A stretch of DNA of 32,000 nt from Candidatus Lokiarchaeum ossiferum (lineage in GTDB: Archaea > Asgardarchaeota > Lokiarchaeia > Sigyniarchaeales > Promethearchaeaceae), in NCBI GenBank assembly GCA_025839675.1, contig CP104013.1, positions 3,570,001-3,602,000 on the forward strand, written 5' to 3'. Positions 1,456 through 7,291 of this stretch are shown piece after piece. The stretch's first letter is position 1, and each line of letters begins with the position of its first letter. The notes below the pieces were generated by a model. The model was not told where the DNA came from, did no database searches, and was given only the letters and a program-made list of their open reading frames with translations. A program made the translations under genes and the position numbers.

Positions 1456-4400
1456 TTAAGTTTGTAAATTGTTGATGTCTAACACATTAATTTGCACCAG
1501 AGTTTCAGGATCTACTTCTTCCTCTTCCTCTTCATATTCAATTCCTTCTTCACTCTCATTTTCTCCTCCCTCTGATTCCTCTTCTTCTTCATATTCTTCT
1601 TCCGCCTCTCCTTCTTCTTCATCTTCATATTCGTATTCGGGATATTCTGGATCTGCAGGAAAAGTTATTTCGAGAATTTTTGCCTTAGCTACTTTATCAT
1701 CCTTTTCACTGGTGGTACATATGGAAATAGATTGATTCTCCCAAAGTAAAGTATGGCCCTCTTTGCTAAAATCATTGCTGGAAACCATCATTCCGTTTAC
1801 TTCTTCCGTGATCAATTCATTCGCCTTCATAAAAGCAGAAAAAATGGTTTCATTGAAGCTATACCCTTTCTTCTTTGCGATCTTTTTAATGGGATTTTTC
1901 TTCAAACGGGCATTAGGTTGATTTAGAATAAATTGAAGGGCATAAGAGTCCATTTTTTTGGCTGAAATATGCGGAGAATGCTTTATTTCTGATAGCAGAA
2001 CTGGAGTTTCCGGATTGTTAATGTTAGCTGGAATGCCCCCGTGGGATGCAATAATGTTTTGATATGTGGATTTGACAACATGGGCGATTGGGAGTTTAAC
2101 AAAAAATTCTTTGAATTCTTCTAAAATCTCATCATCAAAATGATCTAAAACATTTTGAGCAAATCCATTCTTTTCCATTCGTGAAAGTTCTTCTTCTTCA
2201 CCTCGACACATAATCACTTCTGCTGGATAAGCTAAGTTGAAACACATAATGTACAGTAAATTATGCAGATCCATACTATTATTACCAATAAAATTTCCTA
2301 AAAATAAAATGCGTAATGGAGTTTCGTTCGCTTGACTTTCAAATATTTTGGGTTGGAAAAATCGTGAGAGCAATTTATCATTATCATCAAACGTAGAATC
2401 ACCCACATAATACAATTTACTACTCCCAGGCAAAGTTTCAATAAGTGGTTTTGAAGAATCATATTGATCATAGATATCCTGAATTTGATGCAACATTTGT
2501 TGTATATATTGCTTCGCATTATCTCCTCCATAAAATTCATCAGGAGTAGGATGATTATATCGATGGAGGAAATAAAATTCCCAGATTTGATCTATTTCAT
2601 TTGATTTTAGAGCTGCCATTCGGGGTTTTTCTTTACTTGCTTTTGCATCCAACTCGGCTTGAAGTTCCTCATTGCGGCGAATTTCTTCCAAATCCTCGAG
2701 TTCTTCGTCAGTTGAGGGGACATCTGCCCCAGTACCGGCTGTTAAAATTCTAACTTCTTCTTCTGAATGCCAATTTGCCAGATCCAATACTTTTTGAGTT
2801 CGTTCAGATTTGGTTAGCTCCTTGTCGTTTTTGATTGCCTGCATTTTCTCTTGATATTCTTGTTTATGAGATTCTAAGGCTGCTTGGCGTTCTTTTTCCT
2901 CTTTTTCTTGTAATTCTTTTAGCGTTCGTTCTTCTTCATCTTGAATTTCTTTTAACCGTTTTGCTTCTTCCTTTTCTTTTTTAATACGTTCAAGTCGAAT
3001 TTTTTCTTCTTTATCATCTATACGAGCTTTCTCCGCTCTTTCCTTTTCAATTTGTTGAAGTCGTAGTTTTTCCTTTTCTTTTTCTAGACGAGTTTTCTCT
3101 TCCTTTTCCAATCTTAGAGCTTCTTGTTCTTCTTTCTGTTTTTTTTCCAATTTTTGCTGTTTTTTTAGCTCTTCTTCTTTTAGTTTTCGTTCTTGTTCCT
3201 TGGCTTTTCTCTTTTTTTCCTTTTCAAGTTCTTTTTCACGGGCTCTACGCGCTTTTTCCTCAGTAATTTCTTTAGCCCTAATTTCCCGTTCTAATTGCTT
3301 CTTCTTTATTTCCTGCTGAGTTTCTTGTTTTTGAAGTTCTTTTTCAAAACCCTTATCCTTAGAAGCTAAAATTTTCAAGATTCTTCGATCTTCTTGGGCT
3401 TTGATATAACTGTCACGAGTAGGGTGATATTGGTTTGTGATAAATTCAATGTTTTTCTGTTTTACTTCTGGTTCATTAGGATTGATATTACGCTTAATTT
3501 CATATTTAACATCTACTCGCGCTAGCCATTCATCAATAAATTTGAAATTTTTCCGTAATTCACCACGTAATGCATTACGGATGTTATAATCAATGGTTTC
3601 TGAAGATAATTCTTTGCCAAGTGTTTCAAGAGTTAATAACCATTGTTTTCCGCTTTGTTTTACATGATTATAGTATCCTAATTTTTCAAACGCTTGGATT
3701 TGATTGTCAAATTCGTTGATTGTTTGCTTTAATATTTGAACTTCCTCTTTTACAGAAAGGGGTTTTTGAATTTTTTTTTGTTGATCCACTGTGATCTTTT
3801 TTCGAAAAAGTCGAATCGCTTCAATATTCTCGGGAATTTCTTCGGGATGGGTTTTATCACGAATATATTCTCGAGCTTTTAGCTGAATTGGTGCTTTTTC
3901 TCCAAATTTTTCATAATCTGCAACTTTTAATTGAATATCCTTCTTATTTTTCATACCATTCTGGTTGTTGGATGCTTCTTGGTTTTGAATATTCGACCGT
4001 TCTTCTTCTCGCTGTTTTATGGACAAATCAATTTCTGCTTGTTCTTGGATGAAGCCATCTTGAATAGACCTTAGAGTTTGTAAAATTCCCTTAACATATT
4101 CTGCTGAACGTTTTCCTTCCACCCGAAATTTGTCAGGATCAGAATAATCGAACCTTTTTTTCATGCTACGAATAATTTGCTCAATTTCTCTATCATTTTG
4201 GCGAACGACATTAATAAATTTAAATAACCCCTGATATTGGTCGCGATCCTCTCCGATTTTGTCACATACTTGGCGGTATGCCTCGGCTAAGGTTATAGCA
4301 TTTAATAATTGTGGTGATTGGTTTAAAGTAATAAGATCTTCCTTAATGCCTTTGGTAAAATCTTGAAATGCCCGAATAAGTTCCTTTTCTAGTCTTTTCT

Positions 4401-4533
4401 TGAATTTAATTCCCCGTTGCAAATCCCTTTTTTGTTTAAATTTCTTCAGCATTTCTCCCCGACTCCAAAGCTCTTCTTTGGTACTACTTAATTTCTGAGG
4501 CTTTAATTTTTTTCTTCTTTCTAATTTTGACAA
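1456..4533 (-). CDS. Giant coiled-coil protein with a C-terminal PPP-family (PP1/calcineurin-like) phosphatase fold carrying degenerate catalytic motifs, and a poly-acidic tail
   Basis: The ORF is 1025 aa and uninterrupted. The annotated start is TTG at 4533, with no in-frame ATG upstream; the first internal ATG is codon 28, so the start is uncertain. The middle third is E/K/R heptad-like low complexity. The C-terminal part aligns by eye with PP1: KLYYVGDSTF vs ICGDIHG, ILFLGNFIGNN vs LFLGDYVDRG, AYPAEVIMCRGEEEE vs KYPENFFLLRGNHE, LPIAHVV...ASHGGIP vs LPIAAIV...CCHGGLS, and KGYSFNETIFSAFMKANEL vs [21 protein letters not shown]. The tail is PEYEYEDEEEGEAEEEYEEEEESEGGENESEEGIEYEEEEEE. Confidence 0.8.
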   Translation of the reverse strand: MSKLERRKKLKPQKLSSTKEELWSRGEMLKKFKQKRDLQRGIKFKKRLEKELIRAFQDFTKGIKEDLITLNQSPQLLNAITLAEAYRQVCDKIGEDRDQYQGLFKFINVVRQNDREIEQIIRSMKKRFDYSDPDKFRVEGKRSAEYVKGILQTLRSIQDGFIQEQAEIDLSIKQREEERSNIQNQEASNNQNGMKNKKDIQLKVADYEKFGEKAPIQLKAREYIRDKTHPEEIPENIEAIRLFRKKITVDQQKKIQKPLSVKEEVQILKQTINEFDNQIQAFEKLGYYNHVKQSGKQWLLTLETLGKELSSETIDYNIRNALRGELRKNFKFIDEWLARVDVKYEIKRNINPNEPEVKQKNIEFITNQYHPTRDSYIKAQEDRRILKILASKDKGFEKELQKQETQQEIKKKQLEREIRAKEITEEKARRAREKELEKEKKRKAKEQERKLKEEELKKQQKLEKKQKEEQEALRLEKEEKTRLEKEKEKLRLQQIEKERAEKARIDDKEEKIRLERIKKEKEEAKRLKEIQDEEERTLKELQEKEEKERQAALESHKQEYQEKMQAIKNDKELTKSERTQKVLDLANWHSEEEVRILTAGTGADVPSTDEELEDLEEIRRNEELQAELDAKASKEKPRMAALKSNEIDQIWEFYFLHRYNHPTPDEFYGGDNAKQYIQQMLHQIQDIYDQYDSSKPLIETLPGSSKLYYVGDSTFDDNDKLLSRFFQPKIFESQANETPLRILFLGNFIGNNSMDLHNLLYIMCFNLAYPAEVIMCRGEEEELSRMEKNGFAQNVLDHFDDEILEEFKEFFVKLPIAHVVKSTYQNIIASHGGIPANINNPETPVLLSEIKHSPHISAKKMDSYALQFILNQPNARLKKNPIKKIAKKKGYSFNETIFSAFMKANELITEEVNGMMVSSNDFSKEGHTLLWENQSISICTTSEKDDKVAKAKILEITFPADPEYPEYEYEDEEEGEAEEEYEEEEESEGGENESEEGIEYEEEEEEVDPETLVQINVLDINNLQT
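2800..3360 (-). repeat. Low-complexity E/K/R-rich coiled-coil-coding tract; the + strand is almost pure pyrimidine
   Basis: The + strand reads as runs of ttc/ttt/ctt/tcc, for example ttctttttcctctttttcttgtaattctttt. It translates on the - strand to KELEKEKKRKAKEQERKLKEEELKKQQKLEKKQKEEQEALRLEKEEK... Boundaries are approximate. Confidence 0.8.
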
Positions 4534-4789
4534 AAAGTGGGCTCATAAAAAAATATATGCAACAAATCGATAAATAGTATATGGCAACTCATAATAAATC
4601 TACTAAATCTCCCCTCCTAACTTCCTCATTGCTTGAACAAATTCGAACCATTATTTTACAATCCAATTCATAAGTTTTTCTTCATTTTTCATTGATTTTC
4701 CATTGGTATTTTTGAGTTAATAAATTACAATTTCTTTGATATCCCATTATTTATTTTACTTTAAATTTTTTAAAACATAGGGATGAAAC

Positions 4790-7291
4790 ATGAAAGTTGT
4801 AGAAGAAAATAAGGAAATCCATTTATCCATTAAGGATGTGATATTCGCCAGTAGTGATAGGCGGTTCTATACTTCTTCCATCCCTCTTCGAATTCGTGCT
4901 TCTAAAGGTACCGAAGTCCATGTCGCCTTTCAAGATAAACGAAGTCAATCTGAAAAAAAATTCCAAAAAGAAGCCGCTGTAAAAATCAAACTTGAGGTAA
5001 TGGATTGGAAATTCATAATTTCTGGGCGAGCAGATGTTATTTTTGAAAAACAAGGGAAATTAATCATCGAAGAAATCAAATCGGTGACGAATTTGGAAAA
5101 GTTCGATTTCTCCTCCCGAATTGCGGAAGAATATCGGCAACAACTACTTATGTATGGTCACTATTACAAGCAATTAGGAAGAGATATTGTGTGTCGATTA
5201 GTGCTGGTGGATATTTATTCAGAAGATACCGAGATTATTGAAATTGAACCCCAAGATTTAACCAATTATATCCAGCAACAATGCCAAGTTATACTTACCT
5301 CATGGAAACAAAACCTAAAACAACGAGATTTATTAAAAAAACGTGCTAAAACAATTCAATTTCCTTTTTCAGACCATCGTCCCAATCAGAAAGAAATTAT
5401 TGAAAAAACATCTGAAATTTTAAGCAATCAAGGTCGTCTCATGCTTTTAGCACCTTCGGGACTTGGTAAAACCATCGGAACACTTTATCCTGCCTTGAAA
5501 TATTCACTACGTCACAATAAGCGTCTTTTCATTGTGACATCAAAAACGACCCAACAAAACATCTATCGAGAAACACTCCAGATCTTCGCTAAAAAGAAAG
5601 GTCAATTTTCTTCCATTATTCTTACAGCCAAGGAAAAGATGTGTGTAAATGACGCTTTCATTTGTGAAAAATCTTTTTGTCCCTTCATAGAAAATTATGA
5701 AAACGCACCACTTGATGAGATCACTTCAGAAGTATCAAAAAAACAAGTTGTTGATGCACGCATTATTCGAAAGATTGCCAAGAAACATACTGTATGCCCA
5801 TTTGAACTTTCCTTGGATTATTCGTTAGAATGTGATGTCATAGTTGGTGACTATAACTACGTGTTTCATCCCTTTATTAAATTGAAACGTTATTTCGATC
5901 AACCCTATGATGATATGGTTCTCATTGTAGATGAAGCTCATAATTTACCTTCACGGGCTATGACTTATTATTCGCCTGAAATTACTCTAAAAAGTATTGC
6001 TGACACAATCGAGTCCTTGCGTGCGTTAAATCTTCCCAAGAAAGTGGAACGTAAAGGTCTAGATCTTTATCAGAAAGTCAACAAATATCTCCTTGCCCTA
6101 ATTAAAGAATACCCTGATATTCCAAACCGTAAAATTGTGCTCGCTAAATTTGATAAGAAATTCTTTCGTACGGTAGTGAAGGATAGTGATCGATTTGTAA
6201 TGTGGTATGTTCAAGCTTATATTGATCGAATGGGATATCAACCAGGAGGTAAAGATAGAAATCTTGAGTTTACTATGAATTTACGTAATTTTTATTTAAT
6301 CTTGAAGGAAAGCGATTTACCTGAATATAGCGAGTTGTTATATCTTAAAGAAGGGAAAATGAAAATCCTATGCAAATCAGCAGCCCATAAATTAGAATAC
6401 CAACTTCAAGGGTTTAATTCGGTTATTATGCAATCAGCCACTCTCTTTCCAATGGAATATTTTCAAAAAATGCTTGGGTTTCCTGAATCTGCAATTCGGC
6501 TTCAATTTAATTCCCCTTATGCTCAGCAAAACCGGTTATATCTATTAATGCCGAACATTTCAACCAAATATGAATATCGTCGGGATTCTTATGAACCAAT
6601 TGCTGCATTGATCTGTGATTCAGTAGCCTTAAAATATGGGAATTATCTTGCTTTTTTCCCCTCCTTTAAATATTTAAAAGCCGTGGAACAAGAAATTGAG
6701 AGAAAATCTCTCTCAGTTGAGTTGTTAGTGCAAGATAGAAATATGAGTGAACGAAAAAGGAGAGAATATCTGAAAAAATTGCAATCCCCAGATAAAAAAT
6801 ATCTCCTCTTAGGAGTTCATGGTGGCATTTTTAGTGAAGGTGTAGATTTCACAGGTGATATGGCTATTGGAGCATTCATCATCGGTCCTGGATTACCAGC
6901 TTATTCATTGGAGCAAGAAATGATGAAAAATTACTTTGATTTCAAATGGCAAAAAGGATTTGAGTATGCCTACCGCAATCCAGGGATCACAAAGGTAATT
7001 CAATCTGCAGGTCGGGTTTTCCGAACTTTTACAGATAGAGGATTTGTTATTTTAATTGGACAGCGATTCATAACTCCTTTTTATAAAGATATTCTCCCCC
7101 AAGATTGGTTGATTGAGCGACCTGATGATATTATTGGAAGAATTTCTTCTTTTTGGAATGATAAATCTCCAAAAATTATTACAAAGTCAAATGAAACGGA
7201 AGAAAAATATGAGAAACCGAACAAAAAAAAGAGCTCTAAAAAGAAATATCCAAAAACAGTTGACCTCTTTGATTTGATGGAAAAGCTTTAA
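4790..7291 (+). CDS. PD-(D/E)XK (RecB/Cas4-like) nuclease domain fused to an XPD/Rad3/DinG-family SF2 Fe-S DNA helicase
   Basis: The N-terminal ~175 aa carry GRADVIF...LIIEEIKS (D at nt 5033, ExK at 5069-5080) followed by QQLLMY (a QxxxY motif). The helicase motifs are: Walker A LLAPSGLGKT (nt 5450-), a four-Cys cluster MCVNDAFICEKSFCPF...VCPFE, VIVGDYNYVF, DEAH in VDEAHNL (nt 5930-), QSATL, GGIFSEGVDF and QSAGRVFR. The C-terminal tail is Lys-rich. Confidence 0.9.
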   Translation: MKVVEENKEIHLSIKDVIFASSDRRFYTSSIPLRIRASKGTEVHVAFQDKRSQSEKKFQKEAAVKIKLEVMDWKFIISGRADVIFEKQGKLIIEEIKSVTNLEKFDFSSRIAEEYRQQLLMYGHYYKQLGRDIVCRLVLVDIYSEDTEIIEIEPQDLTNYIQQQCQVILTSWKQNLKQRDLLKKRAKTIQFPFSDHRPNQKEIIEKTSEILSNQGRLMLLAPSGLGKTIGTLYPALKYSLRHNKRLFIVTSKTTQQNIYRETLQIFAKKKGQFSSIILTAKEKMCVNDAFICEKSFCPFIENYENAPLDEITSEVSKKQVVDARIIRKIAKKHTVCPFELSLDYSLECDVIVGDYNYVFHPFIKLKRYFDQPYDDMVLIVDEAHNLPSRAMTYYSPEITLKSIADTIESLRALNLPKKVERKGLDLYQKVNKYLLALIKEYPDIPNRKIVLAKFDKKFFRTVVKDSDRFVMWYVQAYIDRMGYQPGGKDRNLEFTMNLRNFYLILKESDLPEYSELLYLKEGKMKILCKSAAHKLEYQLQGFNSVIMQSATLFPMEYFQKMLGFPESAIRLQFNSPYAQQNRLYLLMPNISTKYEYRRDSYEPIAALICDSVALKYGNYLAFFPSFKYLKAVEQEIERKSLSVELLVQDRNMSERKRREYLKKLQSPDKKYLLLGVHGGIFSEGVDFTGDMAIGAFIIGPGLPAYSLEQEMMKNYFDFKWQKGFEYAYRNPGITKVIQSAGRVFRTFTDRGFVILIGQRFITPFYKDILPQDWLIERPDDIIGRISSFWNDKSPKIITKSNETEEKYEKPNKKKSSKKKYPKTVDLFDLMEKL

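Follow-up and report, generated by a model that had tools for sequence, protein, structure and literature searches.

We examined a gene in a 32,000-nucleotide stretch of the Candidatus Lokiarchaeum ossiferum genome (contig CP104013.1, positions 3,570,001 to 3,602,000), which is referred to here as the window and whose coordinates are used throughout. The open reading frame (ORF) in question occupies 1456..4533 on the minus strand and encodes 1025 amino acids from its first possible start, a TTG; all residue numbers are counted from this TTG. The product is probably a multi-domain Asgard protein whose C-terminal 385 residues form a catalytically dead but structurally intact domain of the PPP-type Ser/Thr phosphatase family, that is, a pseudophosphatase. 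All of the computational marks of a pseudophosphatase, namely homology and fold, loss of essential residues and maintenance by selection, were found in this domain. Homologous proteins and their loci are designated below by P and L numbers.

Homology and fold of the C-terminal domain

When the single protein was compared with all PDB sequences using phmmer, only PPP catalytic subunits (PP5, calcineurin and PP1) were matched, at E values of 4e-7 to 1e-4. The alignments paired LFLGNFIGNN with LFNGDFVDRG, RGEEE with RGNHE, and HGG with HGG. A nine-sequence family profile matched PPPs in the PDB at E values of 1e-32 to 1e-25, and the envelope of the family-profile hidden Markov model (HMM) begins at residue 554. 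A graded series of relatives joins the window protein to fully intact PPPs. The Pfam Metallophos profile (PF00149), which the earlier note had put forward as a check, failed where the family profile succeeded: it gave no match even at E<=10, with either the full protein or residues 639-967. PF00149 is carried by the relatives P0004, P0006, P0007 and P0011. Searches of the full protein and its sub-regions against Pfam and NCBIfam returned nothing meaningful, and NCBIfam matches to aldehyde dehydrogenases (E 0.02-0.04) were set aside as noise.

An AlphaFold model of residues 639-1025 had a mean predicted local distance difference test score (pLDDT) of 76 and a predicted template modelling score (pTM) of 0.79, with disorder confined to an acidic run. 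When Foldseek was run with this model, the top 50 matches were all PPP catalytic subunits (PP5, PP1, PP2A, PPZ and calcineurin), at E values from 6e-18, for PP5, to 5e-16. Template modelling (TM) scores normalised to the target were 0.65-0.79 overall and 0.74-0.79 for PPZ1, PP1 and PP2A. The C-terminal segment of about 385 residues is homologous to PPP phosphatases and has the PPP fold, as the earlier note had proposed; the phmmer, family-profile and Foldseek results agree on this. As regards membership of the PPP family, fold and homology place the domain within it, but the catalytic motifs do not. The core of the domain is as follows.

1663..2613, minus strand: putative pseudophosphatase core with PPP fold, residues 641-957, supported by homology, model, residue table and selection

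Loss of catalytic residues

Eleven catalytic residues were scored in a 47-sequence MAFFT alignment, using the canonical PP2A-like protein P0037 as reference. We take these residues to be, in PP1 numbering, D64, H66, D92, D95, R96, N124, H125, H173, R221, H248 and Y272. The corresponding string for the window protein is D - N G N E E H K N K, with only two of the eleven, D712 and H831, kept. The motifs and their remnants are located as follows.

2389..2403, minus strand: GDSTF, remnant of GDxHG, residues 711-715; the Asp is kept (D712) and the His is lost through a two-residue deletion
2278..2298, minus strand: GNFIGNN, remnant of GDxVDRG, residues 746-752; the bridging Asp has become N747, the second Asp G750 and the Arg N751
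2191..2205, minus strand: RGEEE, remnant of RGNHE, residues 777-781; the metal-ligand Asn has become E779 and the general-acid His E780
2035..2043, minus strand: HGG, retained, residues 831-833, with H831
1774..1782, minus strand: SSN, remnant of RGH/RAH, residues 918-920; the metal-ligand His has become N920
1702..1719, minus strand: CTTSEK, remnant of FSAPNY/FSATNY, residues 939-944; the Tyr has become K944

The motifs GDSTF, GNFIGNN, GEEE and HGG that the earlier note had quoted are all present at their positions, as are the hydrophobic segments LRILFLG and LPIAHVV, and HGG is indeed the sole motif kept. Its description of the other motifs as substituted holds for GDxVDRG and GNHE, but not for the His of GDxHG, which was deleted rather than replaced. 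The SAPNY/His region, which it had considered unrecognisable, can be aligned as the last two elements listed above.

At the position of the second phosphate-clamp Arg (R221) the window protein has K or a deletion, and relatives have N, G or D; neither phosphate-clamp arginine survives in the window protein. One of four is kept among the HGG His, the RGH/RAH His, the second Arg and the SAPNY Tyr (H831), and the domain departs from each of GDxHG, GDxVDRG and GNHE. Judged from the alignment, nine of the eleven residues that would make up the two-metal centre, the general acid and the phosphate clamp have been lost, and the domain would be expected neither to bind two metals nor to hydrolyse phosphoesters.

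These losses bear on the suggestion, made in the earlier note, that the domain traps phospho-substrates, that is, that it acts as a 'grab and hold' pseudophosphatase which binds phospho-Ser/Thr proteins without hydrolysing them. PPPs hold the phosphate by means of two metals, two arginines and the Asn and His of GNHE. In the window protein, R96 corresponds to N751, R221 to K or a gap, and both N124 and H125 to E; a Glu-rich pocket together with a polyacidic loop would be expected to repel phosphate. The two arginines are the 'two R-clamp' of PPPs (PMC10214084). Such a trapping mode has been proposed for STYX and EGG-4/5, and tentatively for PfPPP8 of Plasmodium (PMC10317984), and in our model the PPP fold and its substrate-docking surfaces appear to be retained. 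However, the authors of the PfPPP8 study built their trap idea on retained basic residues that are lost here (PMC10317984). Because the metal sites, both arginines and the Asn and His of GNHE are lost, with largely acidic replacements, we give phospho-substrate trapping only a slim chance.

A clade of degenerate PPPs in Asgard archaea

Word-indexed searches found 3 close homologues only, and 8 when a profile was used. An exhaustive HMMER search of 1.84 billion representatives returned 12,117 PPP relatives, 108 of them at E<=1e-30. About 11 of the top-matching representatives form a degenerate group, in which 0-6 of the 11 scored residues are kept; they are the window protein, P0001-P0005, P0009-P0012 and P0025. 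A genome scan for further copies, made with a 3-sequence alignment, added 2 more from species-representative genomes, L006 (an uncultured archaeon) and L007 (Candidatus Harpocratesius repetitus FW102). The other relatives keep 10-11 of the 11 residues, with the exceptions of P0013 (9/11) and a separate pair, P0008 and P0029. The catalytic residues that survive vary from one member of the group to another, as illustrated by three of them.

P0001: GGLEG in place of GDxHG, GNYTGNN in place of GDxVDRG, GANE in place of GNHE, SGG in place of HGG
P0003: GDTNG in place of GDxHG, GNFIGGG in place of GDxVDRG, GTHE in place of GNHE, HGY in place of HGG
P0012: GDLFG in place of GDxHG, GNYVDYN in place of GDxVDRG, GNHE unchanged, HGG unchanged

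P0001 keeps none of the eleven catalytic residues. As to whether the substitutions are conserved among orthologues, the metal-bridging Asp is replaced by N in all clade members covering that position, but the other replacements vary: the Asp of GDxHG is D, G, S or N, the Asn of GNHE is E, A, T, P, Q, N or K, and the His of HGG is H, S or N. Structural residues, namely the R and G of LRG, the E of GNHE and an LP motif, are invariant in the clade.

A neighbour-joining (NJ) tree was made from 274 columns and 44 taxa with 500 bootstraps; P0029 was left out as too partial. The degenerate group was monophyletic with 98% NJ bootstrap. The branching order within it runs from P0012 (6/11) through P0004 (4/11) to the inner members (0-3/11), and is as expected from stepwise decay after a single founding event. 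Read from this tree, the clade lost its catalytic residues stepwise. All named members come from metagenome-assembled genomes of Promethearchaeota (Asgard) and are annotated 'hypothetical protein' or 'metallophosphoesterase'. The closest intact relatives are found on archaeal contigs with Asgard hallmarks, for example Roadblock/LC7 and Arf/Ras GTPase genes.

The variation within the clade must be weighed against a reading in which the domain is still an enzyme, a diverged hydrolase with a remodelled and perhaps mononuclear site (D712, N747, E779/E780, H831 and N920) and perhaps with a substrate other than protein. All six former-ligand positions bear side chains able to coordinate metals, the domain is strongly conserved, and relocation of catalytic residues in some pseudoenzymes is described in a review (PMC10211241). 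The replacement residues, however, are not conserved in the clade, to the point that P0001 has none of the original eleven; both phosphate-clamp arginines and the general-acid His are lost, and the His66 loop carries a two-residue deletion. Moreover, PfPPP8, with far fewer changes, is already inactive (PMC10317984). We consider a surviving enzyme distinctly unlikely. An alternative complete metal site in orthologues, which the earlier note had named as a finding that would overturn its reading, was looked for in the clade members and rejected as a conserved feature, since the replacement residues vary among them.

Several relatives have features of their own. P0008 and P0029 form a second, separate degenerate PPP pair that keeps 4-5 of the 11 residues and lacks the acidic insert described below; their motifs are GDTAG, GNFSGRP and GNEEA/GNQET, and the tree places P0008 among intact PPPs. 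These features hint that catalytic residues were lost independently a second time. P0013 (554 residues), an apparent Asgard relative, has a PPP domain with 9 of the 11 residues (H66 to Y, D92 to N) with a TIR_2 domain (Pfam E 6e-16) fused to its C-terminal side, an unusual phosphatase-TIR combination. The intact P0007 lies in a cluster (L004 1-9221) with the order VWA, FHA, three unknown genes, Ser/Thr kinase, PP2C, Metallophos (372 residues) and P0007, on an archaeal contig that also carries TFIIB and Roadblock/LC7 genes; the cluster looks like a compact eukaryote-like phospho-signalling module. On L005 (ENA contig_21314) there are many adjacent same-strand gene fragments, including those of tRNA-synt_His and Peptidase_M20, and the pseudophosphatase gene is split into at least 4 pieces. 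Because many unrelated genes on this contig are frameshifted too, the frameshifts are ascribed to assembly errors, and P0004 (386 residues) is therefore taken to be a fragment of a protein of about 1100 residues.

Purifying selection on the domain

Divergence was measured relative to the L001 orthologue, which has 72% amino acid identity overall. In the PPP-like domain the proportions of nonsynonymous (pN) and synonymous (pS) differences were 0.10 and 0.75, with a pN/pS of 0.136; both pN and pN/pS are the lowest in the protein. Elsewhere pN/pS was 0.16-0.21 (N-terminal domain), 0.28 (charged helix) and 0.22 (acidic insert). Synonymous sites are saturated at this distance (pS ~0.75). In at least 11 lineages, at 40-95% identity, the ORF is long and free of interruptions. 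The protein is under purifying selection, and this is strongest on the dead domain. The earlier view that the domain is folded is supported both by the AlphaFold model (pTM 0.79) and by selection.

These data also address the possibility that the gene is decaying or is an annotation artefact, a drifting fusion ORF without function. Homologues are few and none is functionally named, Pfam is blind to the domain, P0159 has no PPP part, and one contig copy (L005) is frameshifted. The frameshifts of L005, however, hit many unrelated genes and appear to be assembly errors, and a pN/pS of 0.14 on the dead domain with saturated synonymous sites is difficult to reconcile with drift, as are the long intact ORFs in many lineages, the confident model and the conserved clade motifs. 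Since no part of the protein is more constrained than the dead domain, the gene is not decaying; we find this explanation hardly credible.

An acidic insert in the terminal hairpin

Two features at the C-terminus of the protein distinguish or complete the domain.

1510..1662, minus strand: FPADPEY motif and polyacidic insert, residues 958-1008; 61% D+E, no K or R, 5 Tyr; predicted disordered
1459..1509, minus strand: terminal segment PETLVQINVLDINNLQT, residues 1009-1025; supplies the fold with its last beta-strand (residues 376-381 of the model, pLDDT about 80)

The acidic run has a pLDDT below 50 (model residues 326-368). The segment that follows, PETLVQINVLDINNLQT, aligns with the last strand of intact relatives (DIYNFKVHDIQNF), the strand itself being VQINVLD in the window protein. 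Since the chain rejoins the fold as its last beta-strand after the acidic run, what had been regarded as an acidic C-terminal tail is in fact inserted into the terminal hairpin, where it separates the last two beta-strands. The motif [FYL]Px[DY]PEY and the insert are found in all 11 members of the dead clade with a complete C-terminus, and are absent from intact relatives. Within the clade the insert is 27-96 residues long and 37-78% D+E, with almost no K or R. Judging from the topology of PP1, we assume that this last hairpin lies beside a docking groove of RVxF type, on the side of the domain that faces away from the active site.

The N-terminal domain, charged helix and linker

Upstream of the PPP-like domain the protein comprises three further regions.

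3334..4452, minus strand: orphan all-alpha N-terminal domain, residues 28-400; two helical subdomains and a disordered linker at about residues 188-215
2854..3333, minus strand: E/K/R-rich charged helix, residues 401-560; 63% E+K+R, 15% hydrophobic, no Gly or Pro
2614..2853, minus strand: pre-domain linker, residues 561-640; clade motif W..E.EV.ILT..TG and an acidic stretch

The AlphaFold model of residues 28-400 (pLDDT 76) is helical throughout, in agreement with the helical N-terminal region predicted earlier. This domain had no Pfam match and no significant Foldseek match in the PDB (best E 0.76). It is kept in P0009 (2e-228) and in P0011 (3e-27), a protein of 1093 residues with the same full architecture, and a faint trace of it was picked up upstream of the frameshifted L005 copy. 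P0014, a PPP in which none of the 11 catalytic residues has been lost, carries the C-terminal half of this domain at its own N-terminus (E 9e-16); the genes upstream of P0014 were checked and do not encode the missing half. P0159 (L008 997-2232) consists of the helical N-terminal domain and a short K/E tail, the spacer and the dead PPP domain being missing; L001 and L009 show synteny with its locus (large secreted protein, DUF3670-SNF2 helicase).

The charged segment had been described in the earlier note as an E/K/R coiled coil, but it shows no heptad periodicity. Its best-register hydrophobic occupancy of the a and d positions was 0.28, compared with 0.30+-0.03 in shuffled sequences, and a canonical coiled coil was rejected on this account. 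There are 0.52 opposite-charge pairs at i/i+3 and i/i+4 per residue. The corresponding segment of P0011 has 60% E+K+R, 0.78 pairs per residue and 5% hydrophobic residues. ER/K single alpha-helix (SAH) spacers occur in eukaryotic proteins such as myosin VI/X and caldesmon, and the window helix resembles these in E/K/R content, i/i+4 pairs, lack of Gly and Pro, and lack of a heptad seam. This likeness is one of composition only, in an archaeal context. At least about 60% E/K/R, dense opposite-charge pairs and an absence of helix breakers, the compositional features of an ER/K SAH, are all found here, and residues 401-560 thus look like an SAH spacer, the P0011 segment even more so.

The pre-domain linker can be aligned in P0003, P0004, P0005, P0012, L006 and L007. 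The shorter members of the clade, P0001, P0003, P0005, P0010 and the Harpocratesius copy (L007 5278-5490), have instead of the long N-terminal region a helical module of about 60 residues, with a consensus of roughly Y..LL..AN..ES..P...L..L..C..IL ... R..YL. This module is also present on the catalytically intact PPPs P0027 and P0033-P0042. An assignment to the MIT domain was dropped: no Pfam MIT match was obtained, and only sub-threshold TPR hints were seen in one of seven sequences.

Possible mode of action

We propose that the dead domain may work through protein-protein contacts, as a binding module, and that the ER/K-type helix of about 160 residues would keep it at a distance from the orphan helical N-terminal domain, which would act in targeting. 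The N-terminal domain could direct the protein to a site or partner that an active PPP also uses, where the dead domain would serve as a non-catalytic partner or decoy, either occupying the site or recruiting factors through its retained PPP surfaces and polyanionic loop. This mode is favoured because intact paralogues also carry the N-terminal modules, of either type, that occur in the dead clade, and a tethered decoy or partner is the most likely mode of action. More tentatively, Asgard archaea may have evolved PPP-fold pseudophosphatases of their own, before or independently of eukaryotes, with the FPxDPEY-loop domain, delivered by the modules of active paralogues and spaced by an ER/K helix, acting as a competitive decoy or anchor that tunes eukaryote-like Ser/Thr phospho-signalling. 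We regard this wider proposal as doubtful.

Several points weigh against these interpretations. We infer the lack of phosphatase activity from sequence, and D712, N747, E779, E780, H831 and N920 are all potential metal ligands, so that a weak mononuclear metal site is conceivable in the window protein. The SAH assignment is drawn from composition, the clade tree is NJ on 274 columns and not a model-based phylogeny, and the idea of a decoy or partner derives from the shared N-terminal modules. P0159 (411 residues, 36% identity) has the N-terminal domain without a PPP domain. Finally, neither in the window nor at the homologue loci did we find a conserved neighbourhood tying the gene to kinases, FHA proteins or active PPPs.

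The gene and its neighbours

The gene and its candidate promoter, as read from the sequence, are located as follows.

1456..4452, minus strand: probable coding sequence (CDS), 998 residues plus stop, beginning at the ATG of M28
4546..4558, minus strand: candidate promoter, an A/T-rich TATA-like element, ATATATTTTTTTA, about 95 nt upstream of the ATG at 4452

The length of 1025 residues in the earlier note is correct for the maximal ORF from the TTG, but not for the probable CDS. P0009 (1002 residues, about 94-95% identical) starts at an ATG equivalent to M28, and the L001 orthologue also begins at the equivalent ATG, an upstream start being impossible there. Because these orthologues begin at the M28 equivalent, the start is probably the ATG at 4452, and 1456..4452 is the most likely CDS.

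The pseudophosphatase gene stands alone among housekeeping genes, with an XPD-type helicase as its divergent and a large secreted protein as its convergent neighbour. Gene contexts of homologues are not conserved beyond close relatives, and the sole cluster with kinase, FHA and PP2C genes is that of the intact P0007. The divergent neighbour, at 4790-7291 on the plus strand, encodes an XPD/DinG-type helicase (DEAD_2 and Helicase_C_2). Its first ~190 residues match the PD-(D/E)XK nuclease superfamily (PF12705, 22.9 bits against a cutoff of 22), which suggests a nuclease-helicase fusion. At the otherwise syntenic P0009 locus, a PIN-MazE toxin-antitoxin pair lies between the helicase and the gene (L009 5175-5838), and a MazE gene is found at the same place in L001 (745-993); the window has neither. 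The product of the convergent downstream gene, at 37-1410 on the plus strand, is secreted, contains repeated modules of DDDWY type and has a membrane anchor at its C-terminus; no Pfam match was found for it, and this copy is possibly clipped by the window edge. Its homologues range from 618 to 1552 residues (L006 1613-3469, L001 3903-8561, L009 9054-13379), and their genes hold the same position relative to the pseudophosphatase gene. It should be noted that an 88-residue Ser-rich ORF at 1469-1735 on the plus strand is an antisense reading of the GAA/GAG-rich acidic insert and not a gene.

Comparison with known PPPs and pseudophosphatases

Small archaeal PPPs (PP1-arch of Sulfolobus, Methanosarcina and Pyrodictium) are single-domain active enzymes of about 30-35 kDa. 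The window protein likewise belongs to the PPPs of archaea, but it is a multi-domain protein of about 1000 residues without the catalytic residues. According to Kerk et al. 2021 (PMC8249667), eukaryotic PPPs probably derive from Asgard 'EukaryoticPPP-like' enzymes; that study makes no mention of Asgard members that are inactive or degenerate. The window domain shares its fold, homology and motif order with these enzymes and with PP5, PP1, PP2A, PPZ and calcineurin. It differs from active PPPs in the replacement of nine of the eleven catalytic residues, its failure to match Metallophos, the polyacidic hairpin insert and the 600-residue helical N-terminal extension.

The closest parallel in state is PfPPP8, a structural component of the Plasmodium basal complex that has been called the first PPP-family pseudophosphatase (Morano et al. 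2023, PMC10317984). There the D to N change in GDxxDRG defines the pseudophosphatase, no activity on para-nitrophenyl phosphate (pNPP) was found in vitro, and a non-catalytic, structural role has been demonstrated (PMC10317984). Both PfPPP8 and the window protein are large multi-domain proteins with GDxxDRG mutated at the metal-binding Asp (GNLINRG and GNFIGNN, respectively). However, PfPPP8 has one mutated motif and keeps its basic phosphate-binding residues, whereas the window protein has lost all motifs but HGG; no polyacidic hairpin insert or ER/K spacer is reported for PfPPP8. PfPPP8 is eukaryotic and the window clade is nested among Asgard PPPs, which points to independent origins. The kinetoplastid kPPP and PP2B-like pseudophosphatases, predicted in silico (Brenchley et al. 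2007, PMC2175518), are similarly PPP members with catalytic-residue substitutions and predicted to be inactive. They are eukaryotic and lineage-specific with an unrelated domain architecture, and their dead state shows no sign of ancestry shared with that of the window protein. The searchable literature contained nothing that combines pseudophosphatase, PPP and archaea, in keeping with the earlier note, which was not aware of any described archaeal family that joins a long coiled coil to a dead PPP domain; in the searchable literature PPP-type pseudophosphatases have so far been described only from eukaryotes. The clade is probably an archaeal group of PPP-fold pseudophosphatases with a signature insert and architecture of its own.

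With a PPP clade in Promethearchaeota that is conserved, under selection and degenerated step by step, pseudoenzyme biology would reach into the archaea. The clade members and their relatives provide a natural series, running down from 11/11 catalytic residues by way of 6/11 and 4/11 to 0/11, in which the repurposing of an enzyme fold can be studied, and the ER/K helix and multi-domain 'eukaryote-like' architecture would be added to those known from Asgard signalling proteins. The annotation of clade members as 'metallophosphoesterase' would wrongly imply activity. If Asgard archaea did evolve pseudophosphatases as decoys of their own, pseudoenzyme regulation, which is usually deemed a eukaryotic elaboration, would already be present in the archaeal relatives of eukaryotes.

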